Below, piece after piece: positions 1,510 through 39,074 of a DNA stretch of 64,000 nt. The position numbers were made by a program, and so were the translations under genes. Under the pieces are notes generated by a model. It worked only from the letters and a program-made list of their open reading frames with translations, was not told the DNA's origin and searched no databases. The stretch lies in sequence record OK335775.1, one strand, 5' to 3'. The first letter of the stretch is position 1, and every line of letters begins with the position of its first letter. This DNA is from Escherichia phage PSD2002.

Positions 1510-3819
<2,310 letters not shown>

Positions 3820-17615: not shown

Positions 17616-19574
17616 TTATATTGTAATTGGTTCCAACTCTATAGTTGTGTACTGAGGACGAAGGTCATCTTCAAATACGATTAAAGAACCGTCTTTGGTA
17701 AAGATGTTGTCTTGGTCTGGCCCTGCATAAAGTTCAATAGACTGGACTTCAAAACGATCGGAAGTAAGGCCTATTGCGGCGATATCCCAGAAAATAAAGT
17801 CCGAGTAATAATCAATTTCGCCAATAACATAGTAGACCGATTGGTCTGCAGGCGCTGCCATTTTATCAAAGTCATCTCCGGTGTAAGGTTGGATGTATTG
17901 GTTTTCAATTACATCGCCAGGTCGGAAAGGACCTATAACCATTTTACCATCGCCTCGTTCGTCTTTATCTGTGGCAACAATACGTACGTTGTAAGATTTA
18001 ACAACATCAGATACGTTTGTTGGGACGAACTCAAATTCACTAGAAGTTACAGAACGGTTGGTGTATTGATTATAGTATTTAATACCCGCTTCAGGTGTTT
18101 TGAAGAAGTTTAATACCTCGCGAACCATTGTTACCGTAGCCGAAGAGCCAAGGATACTGTGGTCTGCATTATCAATATAAGTCAGCATTTTAGACTTGGC
18201 AAATCCGTGGTTGAATATTTCAACTTCGTTAATATAATAACGGTCTATTTGGGAAAGGATTTGGGCCGTTAACCATTGTTCGGATTCCTGTAATTTGTTC
18301 AGTGCATATGAAACCTTAATTTTATGCTTCAAGAACAAGTAGTCAGGAGAAATAACCGAAGGGGTAATAGGTGCCAAGTTAAATTCTGAAAGATAATTTT
18401 GGATATCTTCGCGTTGAACCGCAGTCAAATACAATCCTGATTTAGGTTTAATGGTAACAAAGGCATAACCTGGTTTATTTGGGTCTGTAAAGGTTTGTAC
18501 TGCTTGTACAATAGAACCAAATCGCTCCGAAACGAATGTATCATAATCTGTACCGGTTACAGCACGCATCTGGGCTTCACGTTTAACTACAGCAAGTTCA
18601 CGAATACGTTCAATATCTTCAGGGTCACCACCACCGTCAGCACCTACATAATCCGGGTTTTCATCGTAGTTTTCTGTAATTTTTTCAACCGTAATATATG
18701 CCAAAGAATCCGCATAACTAAAGTCCACTGCCCCGTTAGCAACTTCACCATCTGTACGAAGGTATTCTATAACAATGGTAGCATCTTTAACAGGTTTTAA
18801 ACCACCAATATAATTAGCTTCTAATACCCCACCTGCAACTGATTTTTCAGCAACACCTTCACCAAAGAAGAATTCAGTATTACCATCTACGGTTTCACGC
18901 ATATAGTAAATTGTTGATGTACTACCAGCATGAACCATGGATTTATTAGTCCAGTTAGTCCATTCTGCGCCATCGACATAAAGTTTAACTTCCTGTCTAT
19001 CAATATCCGGGTCACGAATAAGAATAGGAGTTTTAGGGTCATACTTAAGTTCAGTACGGATAATACGACCTTGTGCTAAAGATACGATAGGAAGATATTG
19101 GTTATTAACATCACGTACGGCAATAACGTTTTCCGTGGTAACAAAAGAATACGGGTCTGCTGAAGTATCACGGGCATAGGCCAAGAATTTAGTACCACGT
19201 GGGATACGAATATTCTTTTCATTCAGGGCTTGGGTACAGGTCAACATGATACTTGTTTTGGCTGCTGATTTAGAACTTGGCAAATAGCCGTTATCCTGTG
19301 CAGCCTGGACGACGGAGGAACGCAAGTTAGCAGTACCGATGAAAGATTCATATACCGCGGTATTAGCAAACTGCTGCATATACAGGGTGTTGTAAGCTAA
19401 CATGTCAATCAGGATATTCATTCGCGAACCAACGAAATCGTAATCCTTAAATTCGTCCTGGCTAGAAAGCCAATCGATAATATTCTTTTTAATCTCTTCA
19501 AACGTAGCTCCCACAAATACTTTTGGGATAGCGTTAACGGTTCTTGTTAATTGGTAATTCGTAGGAGTAGCCAT
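17616..19574 (-). CDS. 6: baseplate wedge protein gp6
   Basis: 652 aa (T4 gp6 660 aa); synteny. Confidence 0.75.
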   Translation of the reverse strand: MATPTNYQLTRTVNAIPKVFVGATFEEIKKNIIDWLSSQDEFKDYDFVGSRMNILIDMLAYNTLYMQQFANTAVYESFIGTANLRSSVVQAAQDNGYLPSSKSAAKTSIMLTCTQALNEKNIRIPRGTKFLAYARDTSADPYSFVTTENVIAVRDVNNQYLPIVSLAQGRIIRTELKYDPKTPILIRDPDIDRQEVKLYVDGAEWTNWTNKSMVHAGSTSTIYYMRETVDGNTEFFFGEGVAEKSVAGGVLEANYIGGLKPVKDATIVIEYLRTDGEVANGAVDFSYADSLAYITVEKITENYDENPDYVGADGGGDPEDIERIRELAVVKREAQMRAVTGTDYDTFVSERFGSIVQAVQTFTDPNKPGYAFVTIKPKSGLYLTAVQREDIQNYLSEFNLAPITPSVISPDYLFLKHKIKVSYALNKLQESEQWLTAQILSQIDRYYINEVEIFNHGFAKSKMLTYIDNADHSILGSSATVTMVREVLNFFKTPEAGIKYYNQYTNRSVTSSEFEFVPTNVSDVVKSYNVRIVATDKDERGDGKMVIGPFRPGDVIENQYIQPYTGDDFDKMAAPADQSVYYVIGEIDYYSDFIFWDIAAIGLTSDRFEVQSIELYAGPDQDNIFTKDGSLIVFEDDLRPQYTTIELEPITI

Positions 19575-19575
19575 T

Positions 19576-21663
19576 TTAATTCCTAGTAGGAGATTCTAAA
19601 CAAGGTATGCAAATGGAAAGGGATGGAAATGCAATCGTTAAACCGAATATTCCCAGCATCTTATTAATCCATTGTACCACCTTACTTAAGGATAATGTTG
19701 ATATTTGGTTATACATTGATTTGCACAAGTCTTTCATTGACCTGGAACCATCAGTAAATTCGTGATATAAAGATTTTGCTTTAGTTACTGAGTTCTCGTA
19801 TATAACCATGATATCATCTACAGTAGCTCCGAGCATACCGAGAAGTTCTTCCATTTGAGCCACAATAGGAAGTTTTTTGAATTCTTCTAAAGCCATATCT
19901 AATACATCAGAAACGGAGGTTTGACTTTCGGTAATAGAGTTCTTAATCTGATTATATTTATTCTTTAAAAGTTCGAGTGCAGCTTCAGCTTGTGCTAATG
20001 CGGCTTCCTTCTGAGCAGTTAGCTCGTCTGTAACTTTTTCGTACATTCCTGAAAGATATTGTTTAAATTCAATAGCTTGTTTTTGTACTTCTTGCTTTTT
20101 GAGCTTAATCTCATTCCACAGATTGAGTGCCTGGGTTTTAAGAGCCTCAATCATTGCATAAGCTTCGTCTATTTTCTGGTCTACCTTTTCCATAACCATT
20201 TGATAAACATCTGATGCTGTGAATCCTGGAAAGTTACCGCTCATTATCATGTCCAGTGGTTTAACTTGCTTCATCATTTCCTTGACCGCAGTAATAACGC
20301 TCCAAACTGGGTTCGGAACTATAGGAGGCATACTCCATATTTGAGCGAGGTCTACACACAGTTTTGATAATGCAACACCAGCCATAAGCAATTGAGACCA
20401 GGCCCAGTCATACAAGTCTGTAATTGCATCAATAAGGTCACGCGAATACATCTTGACGCGTTCAACCGAATAATCGTATGCAGACCCAATGGCAGAATAA
20501 ATCGATTGGATGGTTTCTTCTAAATTAAAGTTTTTCCATGCTTCTTTTAATTTCTGTACACCATCACCTGAAGTGCAGAGGTCTTCTAGGTCAATAGTCA
20601 TGCCCATAATAGTAATCGAGGGTAAAAAGCTTTTAAGTAAGTCCCACCCACCGCCAACAATATCCAAGACCTGTGATATGGCATCTTTAAATGCAAGAAA
20701 AGCCATTTGCTGAACATATTGACACATAGCAACAGCTGAGTTGCCTAGCTCTTCCATTGCGACCGATAGCTTACTATAACCAGAATCGAAGAATTTTTCC
20801 CAATCGGTTCCACCAGATGATGGCCATCCAGGGAGCATATCCCAATATAATTTGAATGAATTCCTAGATGTATTCCATGAAGCCATAATCGCATTGGTCA
20901 ATCCGTTGTAAGGGAATTCCGCTGTAAAAGGAACACAGCTTATTGCCCTGGCTCGCCCGGTTATTTCTGGCGGTAAAGACCCGATGGATACCGGTCCCGG
21001 AATCGGAGTTCCTGGGATACTCATATCAACATCTAGATTTAATACCAGTCCAACATAAGTACAAGGTTTTGTCTCATAGTACTTCAAATAAGCCCTGCGG
21101 GAGTCACCAAGGCCGTTAAAGTTGACATACATATGATAATCAGCCGTAACTGCAATCATCGTCCTGGGGTCCATTCTGGGGCCTTGTGATGTCCATACAC
21201 CGCCACAGTTTTCGATGCGATACATATCATATTCAATAGATGTTTTATACAATACAGATTTTGATAAATCAGCGCCGTACCAATCATTACCGGGCAAAAG
21301 AGTTGCACCAATCGATTCTACATAATTTTCTAAATCCAATTGCGTAATAAAGAATATTCCGAGTTTAGCACACCAGATACCTTGACTTGTTCCATCTTCC
21401 GGTGGGGGAGGTGCAGGAAAAGTTTCGGACTTATTACCAAATGGATTTTGTGTGTATAAATGTGTAGCTAGTGGAATAATCTCGGTATCCCATTCAACGC
21501 CATTCCCAGGTTGAATAAAAGCACCTGTTGGGTTATATAATTCCCATTTAACCCGGCGATATTCACCGGGTCCTACTGCGTCATCACAGGGACTTGTTAC
21601 AGTCCCTACCACTTCATCAACTTTATCGTAGTAATTCATATTAACCGACCTGTACGTTGCCAC
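19576..21663 (-). CDS. unrecognised 695-aa protein in the baseplate operon (Cys-containing N-terminal domain, long coiled coil, C-terminal hydrophobic segment)
   Basis: Long ORF; start overlaps gene 5 end by 23 nt and stop abuts gene 6; no match to any T4 core protein I can recall; occupies the slot of T4 5.1-5.4. Confidence 0.6.
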   Translation of the reverse strand: MATYRSVNMNYYDKVDEVVGTVTSPCDDAVGPGEYRRVKWELYNPTGAFIQPGNGVEWDTEIIPLATHLYTQNPFGNKSETFPAPPPPEDGTSQGIWCAKLGIFFITQLDLENYVESIGATLLPGNDWYGADLSKSVLYKTSIEYDMYRIENCGGVWTSQGPRMDPRTMIAVTADYHMYVNFNGLGDSRRAYLKYYETKPCTYVGLVLNLDVDMSIPGTPIPGPVSIGSLPPEITGRARAISCVPFTAEFPYNGLTNAIMASWNTSRNSFKLYWDMLPGWPSSGGTDWEKFFDSGYSKLSVAMEELGNSAVAMCQYVQQMAFLAFKDAISQVLDIVGGGWDLLKSFLPSITIMGMTIDLEDLCTSGDGVQKLKEAWKNFNLEETIQSIYSAIGSAYDYSVERVKMYSRDLIDAITDLYDWAWSQLLMAGVALSKLCVDLAQIWSMPPIVPNPVWSVITAVKEMMKQVKPLDMIMSGNFPGFTASDVYQMVMEKVDQKIDEAYAMIEALKTQALNLWNEIKLKKQEVQKQAIEFKQYLSGMYEKVTDELTAQKEAALAQAEAALELLKNKYNQIKNSITESQTSVSDVLDMALEEFKKLPIVAQMEELLGMLGATVDDIMVIYENSVTKAKSLYHEFTDGSRSMKDLCKSMYNQISTLSLSKVVQWINKMLGIFGLTIAFPSLSICIPCLESPTRN

Positions 21664-23428
21664 CAGATACTTTAGCTAATGAACCGCCATCCATATGCAC
21701 AGTATTTGATGCGTTTAAATTAATGTTCGTCGCTGCAAAATTTAAATCTTGTTCGACATTTACATCCATATTTTGAGCATTGATTGTGGCCTTTTGTTTA
21801 ACGCTTATATCTGCATTCTGGTTGACATTAACTGTTGTATCTTTTTCAACCGTAATATATGCTTCTTGTTCAACAGTTATATCAGCAGTACCCATAATAA
21901 CTATTTTAACATTTCCTTTAACAAGCAGAGTTCCATTACCTTCTACAGTTTTGGTTTCATTCCCTCGAATATGAATGCTTTCAGACCCATCAGTTTGACG
22001 GCGCACGTTTGCCATATTATAATAGGTTTCATCGCCACCAACGTTGACTTTATTATTACCACCAACATAAGTATTTGAATCGCCTTGGGTCATATAATAA
22101 CCATCGGCTACCGTCTTAGAAGTTTTACGTCCATCAGGAGCAACTTCTTCATAACTACCGGTAGGATGGATTAAACGGTATCGTTCTTGCCCTGGGGTAT
22201 TATCGAATTCTTGGATATGCCCGCCTTCAGTTTGCATGGTTTGGACATATGGATATTCGCCTTTATAACTAGAATCAGGTTCTTTAAAAAGAATCCTTGT
22301 GTCTTCTGGAGTCCACGGGTCGGCAGGGTCTGAATTTGTAGGGGCCACAAAGGTTTGAATCATTCTATACGAACGGCCATTAAATGACCTTTCTTTAGGG
22401 GCCATAATACCATATGATTCCATGTTACCTGTGAGGATAATCATTGACACCCTTGATGCGCGACCTTTAGTTTGGTTAAACCATACCGAATTACGGGCTT
22501 CTTCAAATGCCTTTTTATAATCGCCTATTAACATTGCACTAAGCATTCCACGGAATTTAGCAAGCCCACCTAATCCCATTTGGAAAGCCATGTTTTCAAG
22601 AGCCATTTGTCTCGAACGGTTTTCTTTATTATAAACAGGACCTACAACACTATGCAGGCCTATATCATTTTGGACTTTTTTAAGGTCGTCTTGGAATAAT
22701 TTAGAAACCTCGTCCATTGATATTGCACCAGGGTTACCTTTAACTTCTCGTCCTACCTGATTAGATAATATTTTGTTTATTTGATTCATATCTCTAATAG
22801 GTTGTGGCGTAATAAGGTGACCTATACCTATAGTAGGATAACCTTCGGTATCCCAATATACCTTCAGTCTAAGCCCTTCATCACGATGAAGCATGTTTTC
22901 TATTGTGAAATTAGGATTATCATCAGGCTTGACTTGGCTCAAATCCAAACCGTCTGGGTTAATACCTACATCGGTGTTTGCATCTTGTATTACGTTGGAA
23001 GTGGCATCATATCCAACTTCACCACCTCGGTTTAAAGCCGCGGCATCATTACCTAAATAAAGTGGGTATTGACCTGTCGGGTCGCTAAAACCTTCATTAG
23101 GATTAGCCTTTTGTCTTGAAGCGGAACCGTATGTACCAAGGACCAGTCCGTTTAATTTCCACTTATCAAGAAAATGCCCATAAACCTGTGTACCAGGAAC
23201 CATACCGGTCATGGCGGTTTGAATACCTGAAACAGAGGCTGAAGATGTAGGCATTAATACCGACATCCATGGTAAATCTTCTGTACGAAGGCCTTTTACT
23301 GGACCTTGCACTTTTTCGTATGGATGCATGCCCCATACGCGCACGCGTACTCGGCCTTGTTGGAGTGGGTCCATTCGGTCTTCAACTACGCCGACGAACC
23401 AACTGACATTATCAGACATGTTAATCAT
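21641..23428 (-). CDS. 5: baseplate hub / tail lysozyme gp5
   Basis: 595 aa; N-terminal NVSWFVGVVEDRMDPLQQGRVRVRVWGMHP and lysozyme segment YWDTEGYPTIGIGHLI match recalled T4 gp5. Confidence 0.9.
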   Translation of the reverse strand: MINMSDNVSWFVGVVEDRMDPLQQGRVRVRVWGMHPYEKVQGPVKGLRTEDLPWMSVLMPTSSASVSGIQTAMTGMVPGTQVYGHFLDKWKLNGLVLGTYGSASRQKANPNEGFSDPTGQYPLYLGNDAAALNRGGEVGYDATSNVIQDANTDVGINPDGLDLSQVKPDDNPNFTIENMLHRDEGLRLKVYWDTEGYPTIGIGHLITPQPIRDMNQINKILSNQVGREVKGNPGAISMDEVSKLFQDDLKKVQNDIGLHSVVGPVYNKENRSRQMALENMAFQMGLGGLAKFRGMLSAMLIGDYKKAFEEARNSVWFNQTKGRASRVSMIILTGNMESYGIMAPKERSFNGRSYRMIQTFVAPTNSDPADPWTPEDTRILFKEPDSSYKGEYPYVQTMQTEGGHIQEFDNTPGQERYRLIHPTGSYEEVAPDGRKTSKTVADGYYMTQGDSNTYVGGNNKVNVGGDETYYNMANVRRQTDGSESIHIRGNETKTVEGNGTLLVKGNVKIVIMGTADITVEQEAYITVEKDTTVNVNQNADISVKQKATINAQNMDVNVEQDLNFAATNINLNASNTVHMDGGSLAKVSGGNVQVG

Positions 23429-24030
23429 TAGAGGGCTTTCTCCATTTCTCTAATTAAAGCGGAAACAAAGGACTCGATGTCATTAGGGTCTATAATCTTT
23501 ATTTCGCGCTTATATTCATTTTTACGAATGGCGTCCTCGTAAATATCTACTGCAGCCAAAGGACCTTCATATTGAGGATAACGTTTTTCTGTATCACCTT
23601 TATCGTACCAAGTATAAGGATTTTCCGGAGTATTTACTAGATTCCAGAATTTCTCACCCTTTTCATTGACATGATAAAGGACTTGGTTTCCGCCTGCAGT
23701 AGCATAACGTTGAATAGCTGCTTGATACGCAGATTCTTGGCCTGTAATCCAGCCGTAATAAGGGTCATATACGTTATTACACATCAATAAAACCCAATAT
23801 AATTGCACGTTACCATAAAGTTGATGGGCTAATTCTTCTGGACGAGGGGCCCCACTGATATAATATGTTTTAAGTGTATAATTTTTAGCCACTTTATCAA
23901 AATATTCTTTATAGTTTCTAAATATATCAGTCATCGGTACGCTCAGTACATCGGCATCAGTTAATGAGCCGGAATCTGGCTTGACTGTTTTTGATTCGTA
24001 ATTTATAGGATCGAAAAATGAGAAGAGCAT
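23428..24030 (-). CDS. 53: baseplate wedge protein gp53
   Basis: 200 aa (T4 gp53 196 aa); immediately upstream of gene 5; SD GGAGG. Confidence 0.75.
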   Translation of the reverse strand: MLFSFFDPINYESKTVKPDSGSLTDADVLSVPMTDIFRNYKEYFDKVAKNYTLKTYYISGAPRPEELAHQLYGNVQLYWVLLMCNNVYDPYYGWITGQESAYQAAIQRYATAGGNQVLYHVNEKGEKFWNLVNTPENPYTWYDKGDTEKRYPQYEGPLAAVDIYEDAIRKNEYKREIKIIDPNDIESFVSALIREMEKAL

Positions 24031-24075
24031 AGTGCCTCCGAGTATAAATAATATTAATATTTATAAGGAGGCACT
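24031..24075. promoter_or_regulatory. palindromic divergent late-promoter region (TATAAATA on both strands) with mirrored GGAGGCACT-ATG ribosome sites for genes 53 and 4
   Basis: AGTGCCTCC GAGTATAAATAATATTAATATTTATAA GGAGGCACT: 9-bp perfect inverted flanks, plus-strand TATAAATA 24043-24050, minus-strand TATAAATA 24058-24065. Confidence 0.7.
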
Positions 24076-24525
24076 ATGGCCTACTCAGGGAAATTTAAAC
24101 CTACAAACTTACAAAAATATAAAGGTGATTGGAAGAAAATCCAATATCGTTCCTCTTGGGAAGCATGGCTTATGCGTTGGCTTGACAACCATCCTAATGT
24201 CGTCCAGTGGAACTCGGAAGAGGTTGTGATTCCATATTTTAGTAACGCTGATGGAAAGAAACGTCGGTATTTTATGGACTTCTGGGTGAAGTTCGACAAT
24301 GGTCAACAATTCTTTTTCGAAGTCAAACCTTTTAAAGAGACCCATCCTCCAGCGGCGCCTGCTAAAATGACTACAGCTGCTAAAAAGAGATATATCAACG
24401 AACATTATACATGGAGTGTAAATAAAGATAAATGGAAAGCTGCTAAAGCTACAGCAGATAAAATGGGAATTAATTTCAGATTGATTACCGAAAACTCACT
24501 GAAAAAATTAGGATGGAAAGGATGA
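24076..24525 (+). CDS. 4: head completion protein gp4
   Basis: 149 aa (T4 gp4 150 aa); synteny 53/4/2/3/1. Confidence 0.75.
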
Positions 24526-38549: not shown

Positions 38550-38577
38550 TATAAATACCTCCTATACTCAGGAGGTA
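38550..38577 (+). promoter_or_regulatory. late promoter (TATAAATA) overlapping a hairpin that sequesters the gene e ribosome-binding site
   Basis: TATAAATA 38550-38557; stem TACCTCC/GGAGGTA (38556-38562 / 38571-38577) contains the SD; same arrangement as described for T4 gene e. Confidence 0.7.
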
Positions 38578-38579
38578 TT

Positions 38580-39074
38580 ATGGATATTTTTGATATGTTA
38601 CGTCAAGACGAAGGTCTTGATTTAAATCTTTATAAAGACACTGAAGGTTATTGGACTATTGGCATTGGCCAATTGATTACTAAGAACCCTTCTAAAGATG
38701 TTGCTCGTGCTGAACTTGATAAGCTTATGGGTCGAGTTTGTAATGGTCGTATTACTATGGCTGAAGCTGAACAACTCTTTAACCGATCGGTTGAAAATGC
38801 TCGTAGAGCTATTCTGCGTAATCCTAAATTGAAACCTGTTTATGATGTACTGGACGAAGTTCGTCGTTGTGCTTTAATTAACATGGTCTTCCAAATGGGT
38901 GAAGCAGGCGTAGCAGGGTTCACCAACTCTTTACGTATGCTCCAACAGAAACGTTGGAACGATGCGGCAGTTAACCTGGCTCAATCCCGTTGGTATAAAC
39001 AAACTCCTAATCGTGCTAAGCGCGTGATTTCAACATTTAAAACAGGTACTTGGAAAGCATATGAAAACTTATAA
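38580..39074 (+). CDS. e: endolysin (T4 lysozyme)
   Basis: 164 aa; [25 protein letters not shown]...[31 protein letters not shown] matches recalled T4 lysozyme. Confidence 0.95.

Follow-up and report, generated by a model that had tools for sequence, protein, structure and literature searches.

The 45-bp gap between the divergent genes 53 and 4 of Escherichia phage PSD2002 (sequence record OK335775.1) is, on sequence comparison, very probably the Dhakavirus counterpart of the T4 gene 4/gene 53 late control region, with two crossed promoters of the gp55 type and a palindrome that is mostly geometric in origin. The element is real and ordinary for T4-type phages, and it belongs to a kind of control region that has already been catalogued. 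We analysed a stretch of 64,000 nucleotides, called the window here, and coordinates are those of the window unless they are given with a contig.

The gap lies at 24031-24075, exact in coordinates and sequence, between gene 53 on the minus strand and gene 4 on the plus strand, and is laid out as AGTGCCTCC-GAG-TATAAATA-ATATTAA-TATTTATA-A-GGAGGCACT. The two gene identities given in the initial annotation were confirmed by the Pfam matches and annotations listed below. Gene 53 is the first gene of a leftward late baseplate cluster, and its stop overlaps the start of gene 5; gene 4, the product of which has a TnsA-like endonuclease fold and 62% identity to T4 gp4, is the first gene of the rightward 4-2-3 cluster. 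Because the window is 99.9% identical over the junction region to the Escherichia phages QL01, WG01 and LQ5 and approximately 91% identical to JS98, we assign it to a Dhakavirus (JS98-like), a relative of T4. The features of the junction are as follows.

23428 to 24030, minus strand: gene 53, baseplate wedge subunit, 200-aa ORF (Pfam PF11246, E 9e-73; annotation in near-identical phages and JS98)
24076 to 24525, plus strand: gene 4, head completion protein, 149-aa ORF (Pfam PF08722, E 3e-24; annotation in near-identical genomes and JS98)
24031 to 24075, no strand: intergenic control region, 45 bp
24043 to 24050, plus strand: TATAAATA box of the putative gene 4 late promoter (P4), -13 to -6; exact match, conserved in T4, RB69 and others
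24058 to 24065, minus strand: TATAAATA box of the putative gene 53 late promoter (P53); exact match, conserved, RB69 orthologue predicted
24052 (minus strand) and 24056 (plus strand): two predicted transcription starts, placed by the box positions, the -13 to -6 rule and gp55 recognition
24067 to 24071, plus strand: Shine-Dalgarno GGAGG of gene 4, 4 nt 5′ of the ATG
24035 to 24039, minus strand: Shine-Dalgarno GGAGG of gene 53 (CCTCC on the plus strand), 4 nt 5′ of the ATG
24043 to 24066, no strand: A/T-only run of 24 bp with both boxes and the spacer, an easily melted core common to both promoters
24019 to 24039, no strand: left arm of the outer inverted repeat, TGAGAAGAGCATAGTGCCTCC, reaching into the first gene 53 codons (repeat search: 21 nt, 86% complementary; fold)
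24067 to 24087, no strand: right arm of the outer inverted repeat, GGAGGCACTATGGCCTACTCA, reaching into the first gene 4 codons (repeat search; fold)

The T4 late promoter consists of TATAAATA at -13 to -6 of the non-template strand, in which the T at -13 may be A (PMC1524935), and gp55 reads this box as melted non-template strand from -12 (PMC7892883). As the initial annotation had stated, one such box points each way: exact copies of TATAAATA were found at 24043-24050 on the plus strand and at 24065-24058 on the minus strand. The order of the boxes is crossed, with the plus box nearer to gene 53, the minus box nearer to gene 4 and 7 bp between them; the P4 box lies 25 nt from the gene 4 ATG and the P53 box 27 nt from the gene 53 start codon. 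Under the -13 to -6 rule, P4 is predicted to start at A 24056 (plus strand) with a leader of 20 nt and P53 at A 24052 (minus strand) with a leader of 22 nt. The proteins gp55, gp33 and gp45 are expected in a Dhakavirus, as in the Tevenvirinae generally.

With this layout, the plus box would give rise to gene 4 mRNA from approximately 24056 and the minus box to gene 53 mRNA from approximately 24052. Because each leader of about 20-22 nt would hold the complement of the other promoter's box, both would be AU-rich, and each would end with GGAGG-CACU-AUG. The predicted starts are approximately 3-4 bp apart, and each falls between the box and the start of the other promoter; with the boxes s bp apart, the gap between the starts is 10-s bp, which gives 3 bp for s = 7. 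Both open complexes (-12 to about +2) would need the same stretch of about 9 bp, 24050-24058, to be melted. Because each start lies inside the other promoter and these base pairs are common to both, we infer that only one polymerase at a time could occupy the unit; promoter use, start positions and mutual exclusion are in this sense all predictions from the arrangement of the boxes. Transcripts that overlap at their 5′ ends were considered as well and are ruled out by the 10-s geometry, under which the promoters and melted regions overlap and the RNAs do not.

Because the bare 8-mer TATAAATA is not enriched in the AT-rich window (9 matches vs 8.0 expected), and because the motif pair is common in unrelated AT-rich viral contigs, the case for promoters rests on position, orientation and conservation. 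All nine matches to TATAAATA in the window face along the local gene direction, and for the relaxed motif NATAAATA 14 of the 15 matches are oriented with the local genes and 1 is opposed. Seven of these 15 matches sit 21-29 nt 5′ of start codons, namely the P4 and P53 boxes and five others. Each of the two boxes in the gap is thus an 8-bp element that is aimed at a late-gene orthologue at the usual distance and that is conserved while the surrounding non-coding bases drift. When IMG/VR was scanned for TATAAATA-N7-TATTTATA, the matches listed were mostly unrelated AT-rich contigs (median GC 0.30); a gp4 homologue was present at 4 of the 120 loci among the matches listed, and the motif abuts gp4 in all four.

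Two further perfect copies of TATAAATA were observed on the minus strand near the left end of the window, one at 2012-2019 inside the 611-aa ORF 1513-3348 (terminase large subunit by position) and one at 1510-1517, at the 3′ end of this ORF and facing the next gene leftward. T4 has an internal late promoter in gene 17. A different motif, GATACTATAG(A/C)CCTATCAA(A/C), recurs approximately 15-20 nt 5′ of many plus-strand ORF starts between 27900 and 51100, for example before 27926, 28493, 31095, 36374, 40219, 42165, 46810 and 51093; it resembles the -10 element and the sequence downstream of it in early promoters of this phage.

The proposal of two divergent T4-type late promoters, each with a strong ribosome-binding site, is supported by the box pair at the same junction in other genera. 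A comparison with T4 and its relatives showed the same crossed pair in T4, RB69, JS98, Kanagawavirus and Jiaodavirus. In the same orientation, T4 reads CAT-gggccctcctgtt-TATAAATA-tattatc-TATTTATA-aggagaatcca-ATG and RB69 contains TATAAATA-ataatac-TATTTATA, likewise crossed with a spacer of 7; JS98, AnYang, Bp7 and other Dhakaviruses have the boxes and the 7-bp spacer as in the window, the spacer is 10 bp long in Kanagawavirus and Jiaodavirus, and in several other relatives the minus-strand box is AATAAATA. Conservation among these relatives is limited to the boxes and the Shine-Dalgarno sequences, and the sequence between them drifts. Serratia phage SP1 has a 67-bp gap with overlapping back-to-back boxes, TATTTATAAATA, instead of crossed ones, which fits crossing as the probable layout of short gaps that leave too little room for two full back-to-back leaders.

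The supplementary late-promoter table for RB69 (Nolan et al. 2006) contains the predicted promoters Pl:80613 (plus) and Pl:80684 (minus) (PMC1524935). Because their coordinates place both boxes exactly within the RB69 4/53 gap, a divergent pair at this junction has already been predicted in the literature. Promoter features are not annotated in the T4 GenBank records NC_000866 and AF158101, and our literature searches did not find a 5′-end map for T4 P4/P53. For annotation, the value of the element is that it fixes the predicted starts of two late units, 53-5-... to the left and 4-2-3 to the right, in Dhakavirus genomes without promoter features. The junction is also a convenient natural test bed for interference between gp55 promoters.

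In some relatives the junction is interrupted. Providencia phage PSTRCR_121 and Stenotrophomonas phage IME13 each carry an annotated homing-endonuclease gene immediately 5′ of gene 4 (L008 240-911 and L015 195-899), which in PSTRCR_121 lies between genes 53 and 4. In the IMG/VR contigs L021 and L024 the sequence 5′ of gp4 resembles the PSTRCR_121 insert, with a putative endonuclease identity. In these phages the 3′ end of the inserted gene contains the gene 4 initiation region.

When gp4 was used for a profile search, 80 IMG/VR loci were recovered, and in 74 of them a divergent ORF lies no more than 220 nt upstream. These gave 65 distinct spacers (median 49 bp), of which 38 contain a crossed [A/T]ATAAATA pair, vs 0.1 expected from shuffles, and none contains a back-to-back pair (0.1 expected from shuffles). 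In marine T4-like contigs (L017-L096) and the KVP40-like phage phi-ST2 (L011), the divergent neighbour of gp4 is not gp53 but gp48, the baseplate tail tube cap, as assigned by PHROGs (phrog_230); Pfam gave no match for the marine upstream neighbours. Most marine IMG/VR spacers keep the crossed NATAAATA pair with box spacers of 14-20 bp, and the pair is absent from the phi-ST2 spacer itself. Because the crossed pair is present also with gp48 as the neighbour, it is very old and tied to the gene 4 divergence point itself. This depth of conservation 5′ of gene 4 (38/65 spacers, even with gp48) is the mildly new aspect of the element.

The initial annotation had described the gap as a near-perfect palindrome. 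The flanks AGTGCCTCC (24031-24039) and GGAGGCACT (24067-24075) are indeed perfect 9-bp inverted copies, which give both genes the initiation context GGAGGCACT-ATG exactly as claimed, and the inverted arms are far beyond what shuffled sequences give; the wording was nevertheless generous, as ungapped self-complementarity amounts to 30 of 45 positions and the arm centres are offset. The centre of symmetry is 24053 for the outer arms and 24054 for the inner arms, because the GAG on the left opposes a single A on the right. The fold therefore contains a 3x1 internal loop between a 12-bp outer stem (including CAT/ATG) and an 8-bp inner stem formed by the boxes, closed by a 7-nt loop, and a few additional pairs extend into the first codons of genes 53 and 4. 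Fold energies were -32.9 kcal/mol for plus-strand RNA (z -7.3; 0 of 200 shuffles as stable), -33.6 kcal/mol for minus-strand RNA (z -7.8) and -17.0 kcal/mol for the DNA hairpin (z -7.3). An Rfam search assigned no family and returned only a chance match to a miRNA precursor (20.8 bits vs a gathering threshold of 60, E 0.14).

We then used a conditional null in which the two start codons, the two GGAGG elements, the two boxes and the coding flanks were fixed and the other 19 positions were randomised. The mean energy under this null was -21.6 ± 2.9 kcal/mol, compared with -30.5 kcal/mol for the real sequence, so approximately two thirds of the fold follow automatically from the functional elements. 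The real energy was attained in 0.6% of the conditional trials, and the 4-nt spacers between Shine-Dalgarno sequence and ATG were fully complementary in 0.4%. The palindrome follows mostly from geometry, with a start codon, a strong Shine-Dalgarno sequence and a box for each gene placed head to head in 45 bp, and the genuine excess over this automatic palindrome is the 4-nt CACT/AGTG match. A striking palindrome can thus come almost wholly from ordinary signals stacked head to head.

The idea of a designed symmetric element, which the initial annotation had put forward, does not agree with the variation of the flanks. In Dhakavirus records the left arm occurs as AGTGCCTCC or AGGGCCTCC and the right arm as GGAGGCACT, GGAGGCAACT or GGAGGCGACT, and of the six combinations that these allow five were observed (T/CACT, G/CACT, T/CGACT, G/CAACT and G/CGACT), without a compensatory pattern. 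Perfect flanks, one of these five haplotypes, occur in 13 of 51 Dhakavirus records, most of which have the JS98 form, and they are absent from T4 and RB69. Hairpin energies are -32 kcal/mol for the window type, -26 for the JS98 type, -14.6 for T4, -12.3 for RB69 and -9.4 for SonariX. Templated correction of a quasi-palindrome was tried as a source of the perfect arms and rejected, because it predicts AGTTGCCTCC or GGAGGCCCT from the JS98 type and neither was observed. The intermediate forms in KIT01 (G/CACT) and EcoM_005 (T/CGACT) suggest that the arms changed independently.

Co-evolution of the flanks was rejected as well. Across 11 lineages, the two initiation regions of one lineage are more alike than pairs from different lineages (p 0.005 for the longest common substring, p 0.07 for identity), and for the duplex energy of the flanks at 37 dereplicated loci the own partner was better in an unstratified comparison (p 0.0006). 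Because Shine-Dalgarno strength differs between clades, this signal is gone once the strong-SD enteric and weak-SD marine clades are separated: in a stratified permutation, pairing with the own partner was no better within clades (p 0.15 enteric, p 0.28 marine), and a stratified p of 0.046 was obtained only with the pre-selected window sequence as representative. The perfect flanks, with their extra 4-nt CACT, therefore look like a lineage-specific variant that is probably neutral or nearly neutral. The perfect flank may have a modest selected component; only 0.6% of the conditional randomisations attain it.

Near-identical initiation regions were also observed in phage JSE (AGGGTG-N-TAAAATG) and in Serratia phage SP1 (AATAGGAGGCA). 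In JSE, a Krischvirus (L014 830-886), the gene 53 region reads AGGGTGATAAAATG and the gene 4 region AGGGTGCTAAAATG; they are unlike those of Dhakavirus and form a 13/14 inverted repeat with an unusual GGGTG core, similar to a Shine-Dalgarno sequence, on both sides.

Because both predicted starts lie inside the loop, the late mRNAs of genes 4 and 53 would lack the 5′ arm and could not form the hairpin. The mRNA hairpin suggested by the initial annotation is thereby excluded for these transcripts, and according to the fold model it would be possible in read-through RNA only. This leaves one reading, which we consider unlikely, in which the palindrome has additionally been selected as a translational gate: read-through RNA, for example early plus-strand transcripts that cross genes 5 and 53 in antisense on their way to gene 4, would fold and bury the Shine-Dalgarno sequence and the AUG, and late RNA that starts in the loop would be translated. 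There is precedent in T4, where a hairpin hides the Shine-Dalgarno sequence and AUG of genes e, soc, 49 and I-TevI in longer transcripts and the late mRNA lacks the 5′ arm (PMC3014915). In prediction, the 53/4 helix likewise sequesters these signals in RNA initiated upstream, with the late start in the apical loop. The read-through hairpins are strong (-32.9 kcal/mol plus, -33.6 minus; z -7.3 and -7.8), and when the read-through RNAs in the accessibility model begin 80 nt further upstream, the modelled probability that GGAGGCACUAUG is unpaired in late vs read-through RNA is 0.58 vs 0.01 for gene 4 and 0.33 vs 0.00 for gene 53, a contrast at least as strong as for gene e of the window, which has the same layout (0.35 late vs 0.09 read-through). 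A source of such RNA could be a sigma-70-like plus-strand promoter with 11 of 12 matches at 21995-22023 within gene 5, near RepEA- and RepEB-like frames, and the corresponding strand of T4 has an early promoter on which oriE depends; the perfect spacer match, moreover, is a 0.4-0.6% event under the conditional null.

Against selection for such a gate, the hairpin is not kept up among relatives: its stability spans -9 to -33 kcal/mol overall, with -9 to -20 kcal/mol in T4, RB69, SonariX and others, the five Dhakavirus haplotypes mix left and right variants freely and without compensation with the perfect form in only 13/51 records, and own-partner complementarity of the flanks is no better than cross-lineage complementarity within clades (p 0.15 and 0.28). 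In addition, a terminator-like hairpin lies on the plus strand just upstream of the gap, at 23965-23992. Because the hairpin is not conserved, we rate a selected gating role for it, as modelled here, as improbable. We are similarly doubtful about an integrated device in which a mirror-image late-only gate would silence genes 4 and 53 on read-through RNA and the two promoters would form a mutually exclusive toggle set by the polarity of the incoming gp45 clamp; if true, it would couple the expression of head-completion and baseplate genes at a junction that is kept across the T4-like superfamily, whichever gene is the neighbour.

Several features of the surrounding sequence were observed along the way. 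Gene e (38580-39074, plus strand; PF00959 lysozyme) is preceded at 38550-38582 by TATAAATA and then CCTCCT-ATACTC-AGGAGG-TATT-ATG, the classic arrangement of T4 gene e, where late transcription begins within the 5′ arm of the hairpin that sequesters the Shine-Dalgarno sequence. Antisense to gene 5, the plus strand carries three features: the sigma-70-like promoter TTGACG-17-TATAAT (21995-22023), a RepEA-like frame at 22144-22266 (tblastn E 2e-9 vs T4 RepEA) and a 45-aa ORF at 23269-23406 that resembles T4 RepEB in its length and ends (MV... / ...GPF-LQ--R-TN). Together they may be an oriE-like early unit or may mirror the conservation of gene 5 on the other strand. The terminator-like hairpin and T-run at 23965-23992 (plus strand), TGAGCCGGAATCTGGCTTG ACTGTTTTTG, lies antisense to gene 53 approximately 40 nt before the gap. 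JS98 has an identical copy, whereas T4 and Kosakonia phage 305 have none, and chance may account for the site, as 7 of this kind were counted vs 3.3 expected in the scanned stretch.

It is very improbable that the inverted repeat is an operator for a dimeric DNA-binding protein, for which a protein of the T4 DsbA type would be one candidate. Inverted symmetry and a 24-bp A/T-only core would suit such a protein, and low-affinity, A/T-rich DsbA sites are reported to overlap two T4 late promoters; however, the affinity of DsbA is micromolar and its gene non-essential (PMC2988020). Furthermore, relatives differ in the sequence and length of the flanks and of the central spacer (7 or 10 bp), and conservation is confined to the boxes and Shine-Dalgarno sequences.

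A replication element, that is, a cruciform or DNA-unwinding element at the switch of transcription and strand bias near an oriE-like region, is hardly credible: although the cumulative GC skew of the window has its minimum exactly at the junction (approximately 24 kb), T4 oriE lies approximately 2 kb away and T4 origins cluster near such switch points, the core is 24 bp of A/T only and the DNA hairpin reaches -17 kcal/mol (z -7.3), the skew minimum is accounted for by gene orientation turning from minus to plus there, T4 oriE itself maps inside gene 5 and not at the 53/4 junction, iteron-like repeats were not found in 19000-24200, and relatives retain the boxes and not the arms. Extrusion as a cruciform, also raised by the initial annotation, is unlikely because the all-AT inner stem of 8 bp, the 7-nt loop and the 3x1 internal mismatch loop are poorly suited to it; a cruciform would call for a long and perfect inverted repeat with hardly any bases at its centre, and the gap offers 30/45 ungapped matches around 7 nt.

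With two crossed late promoters as the preferred reading, the closest known system is the 4/53 junction of T4 and RB69, which is like that of the window in its genes, its divergent layout, its two perfect crossed boxes and its 7-bp spacer. The junctions differ in their flanks: in the window both leaders are predicted to end with GGAGGCACT-ATG, which gives perfect arms of 9 bp (12 with the ATG) and a hairpin of approximately -32 kcal/mol, whereas T4 has the flanks GGAGGGCCC/AGGAGAATCCA and a hairpin of only -14.6 kcal/mol, and RB69 has a hairpin of -12.3 kcal/mol, a 61-bp gap and a TTG start for gene 53.

Back-to-back late promoters of the TATTTATAAATA type resemble the window in that opposed -10-like elements lie on a common AT-rich core at a divergence point, and the coordinates of RB69 Pl:118620/118672 are as expected for this form. 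In the back-to-back form, however, each box is nearest to its own gene and the starts are approximately 20 bp or more apart, whereas in the window the boxes are crossed, the predicted starts are approximately 3-4 bp apart and each leader holds the other box. Opposed -10-like elements on one AT-rich core are also found in bacterial symmetric bidirectional sigma-70 promoters.

Compared with the gates of T4 genes e, soc, 49 and I-TevI, the 53/4 hairpin is alike, in prediction, in the sequestration of the Shine-Dalgarno sequence and AUG and in the placement of the late promoter. For the T4 genes, early or middle RNAs that enter the gene from upstream are documented, whereas read-through at 53/4 is putative. 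The 53/4 hairpin is also symmetric and would serve both strands, its arms are the ribosome-binding sites of the two genes themselves instead of a dedicated anti-Shine-Dalgarno segment, and its strength is not conserved among relatives.
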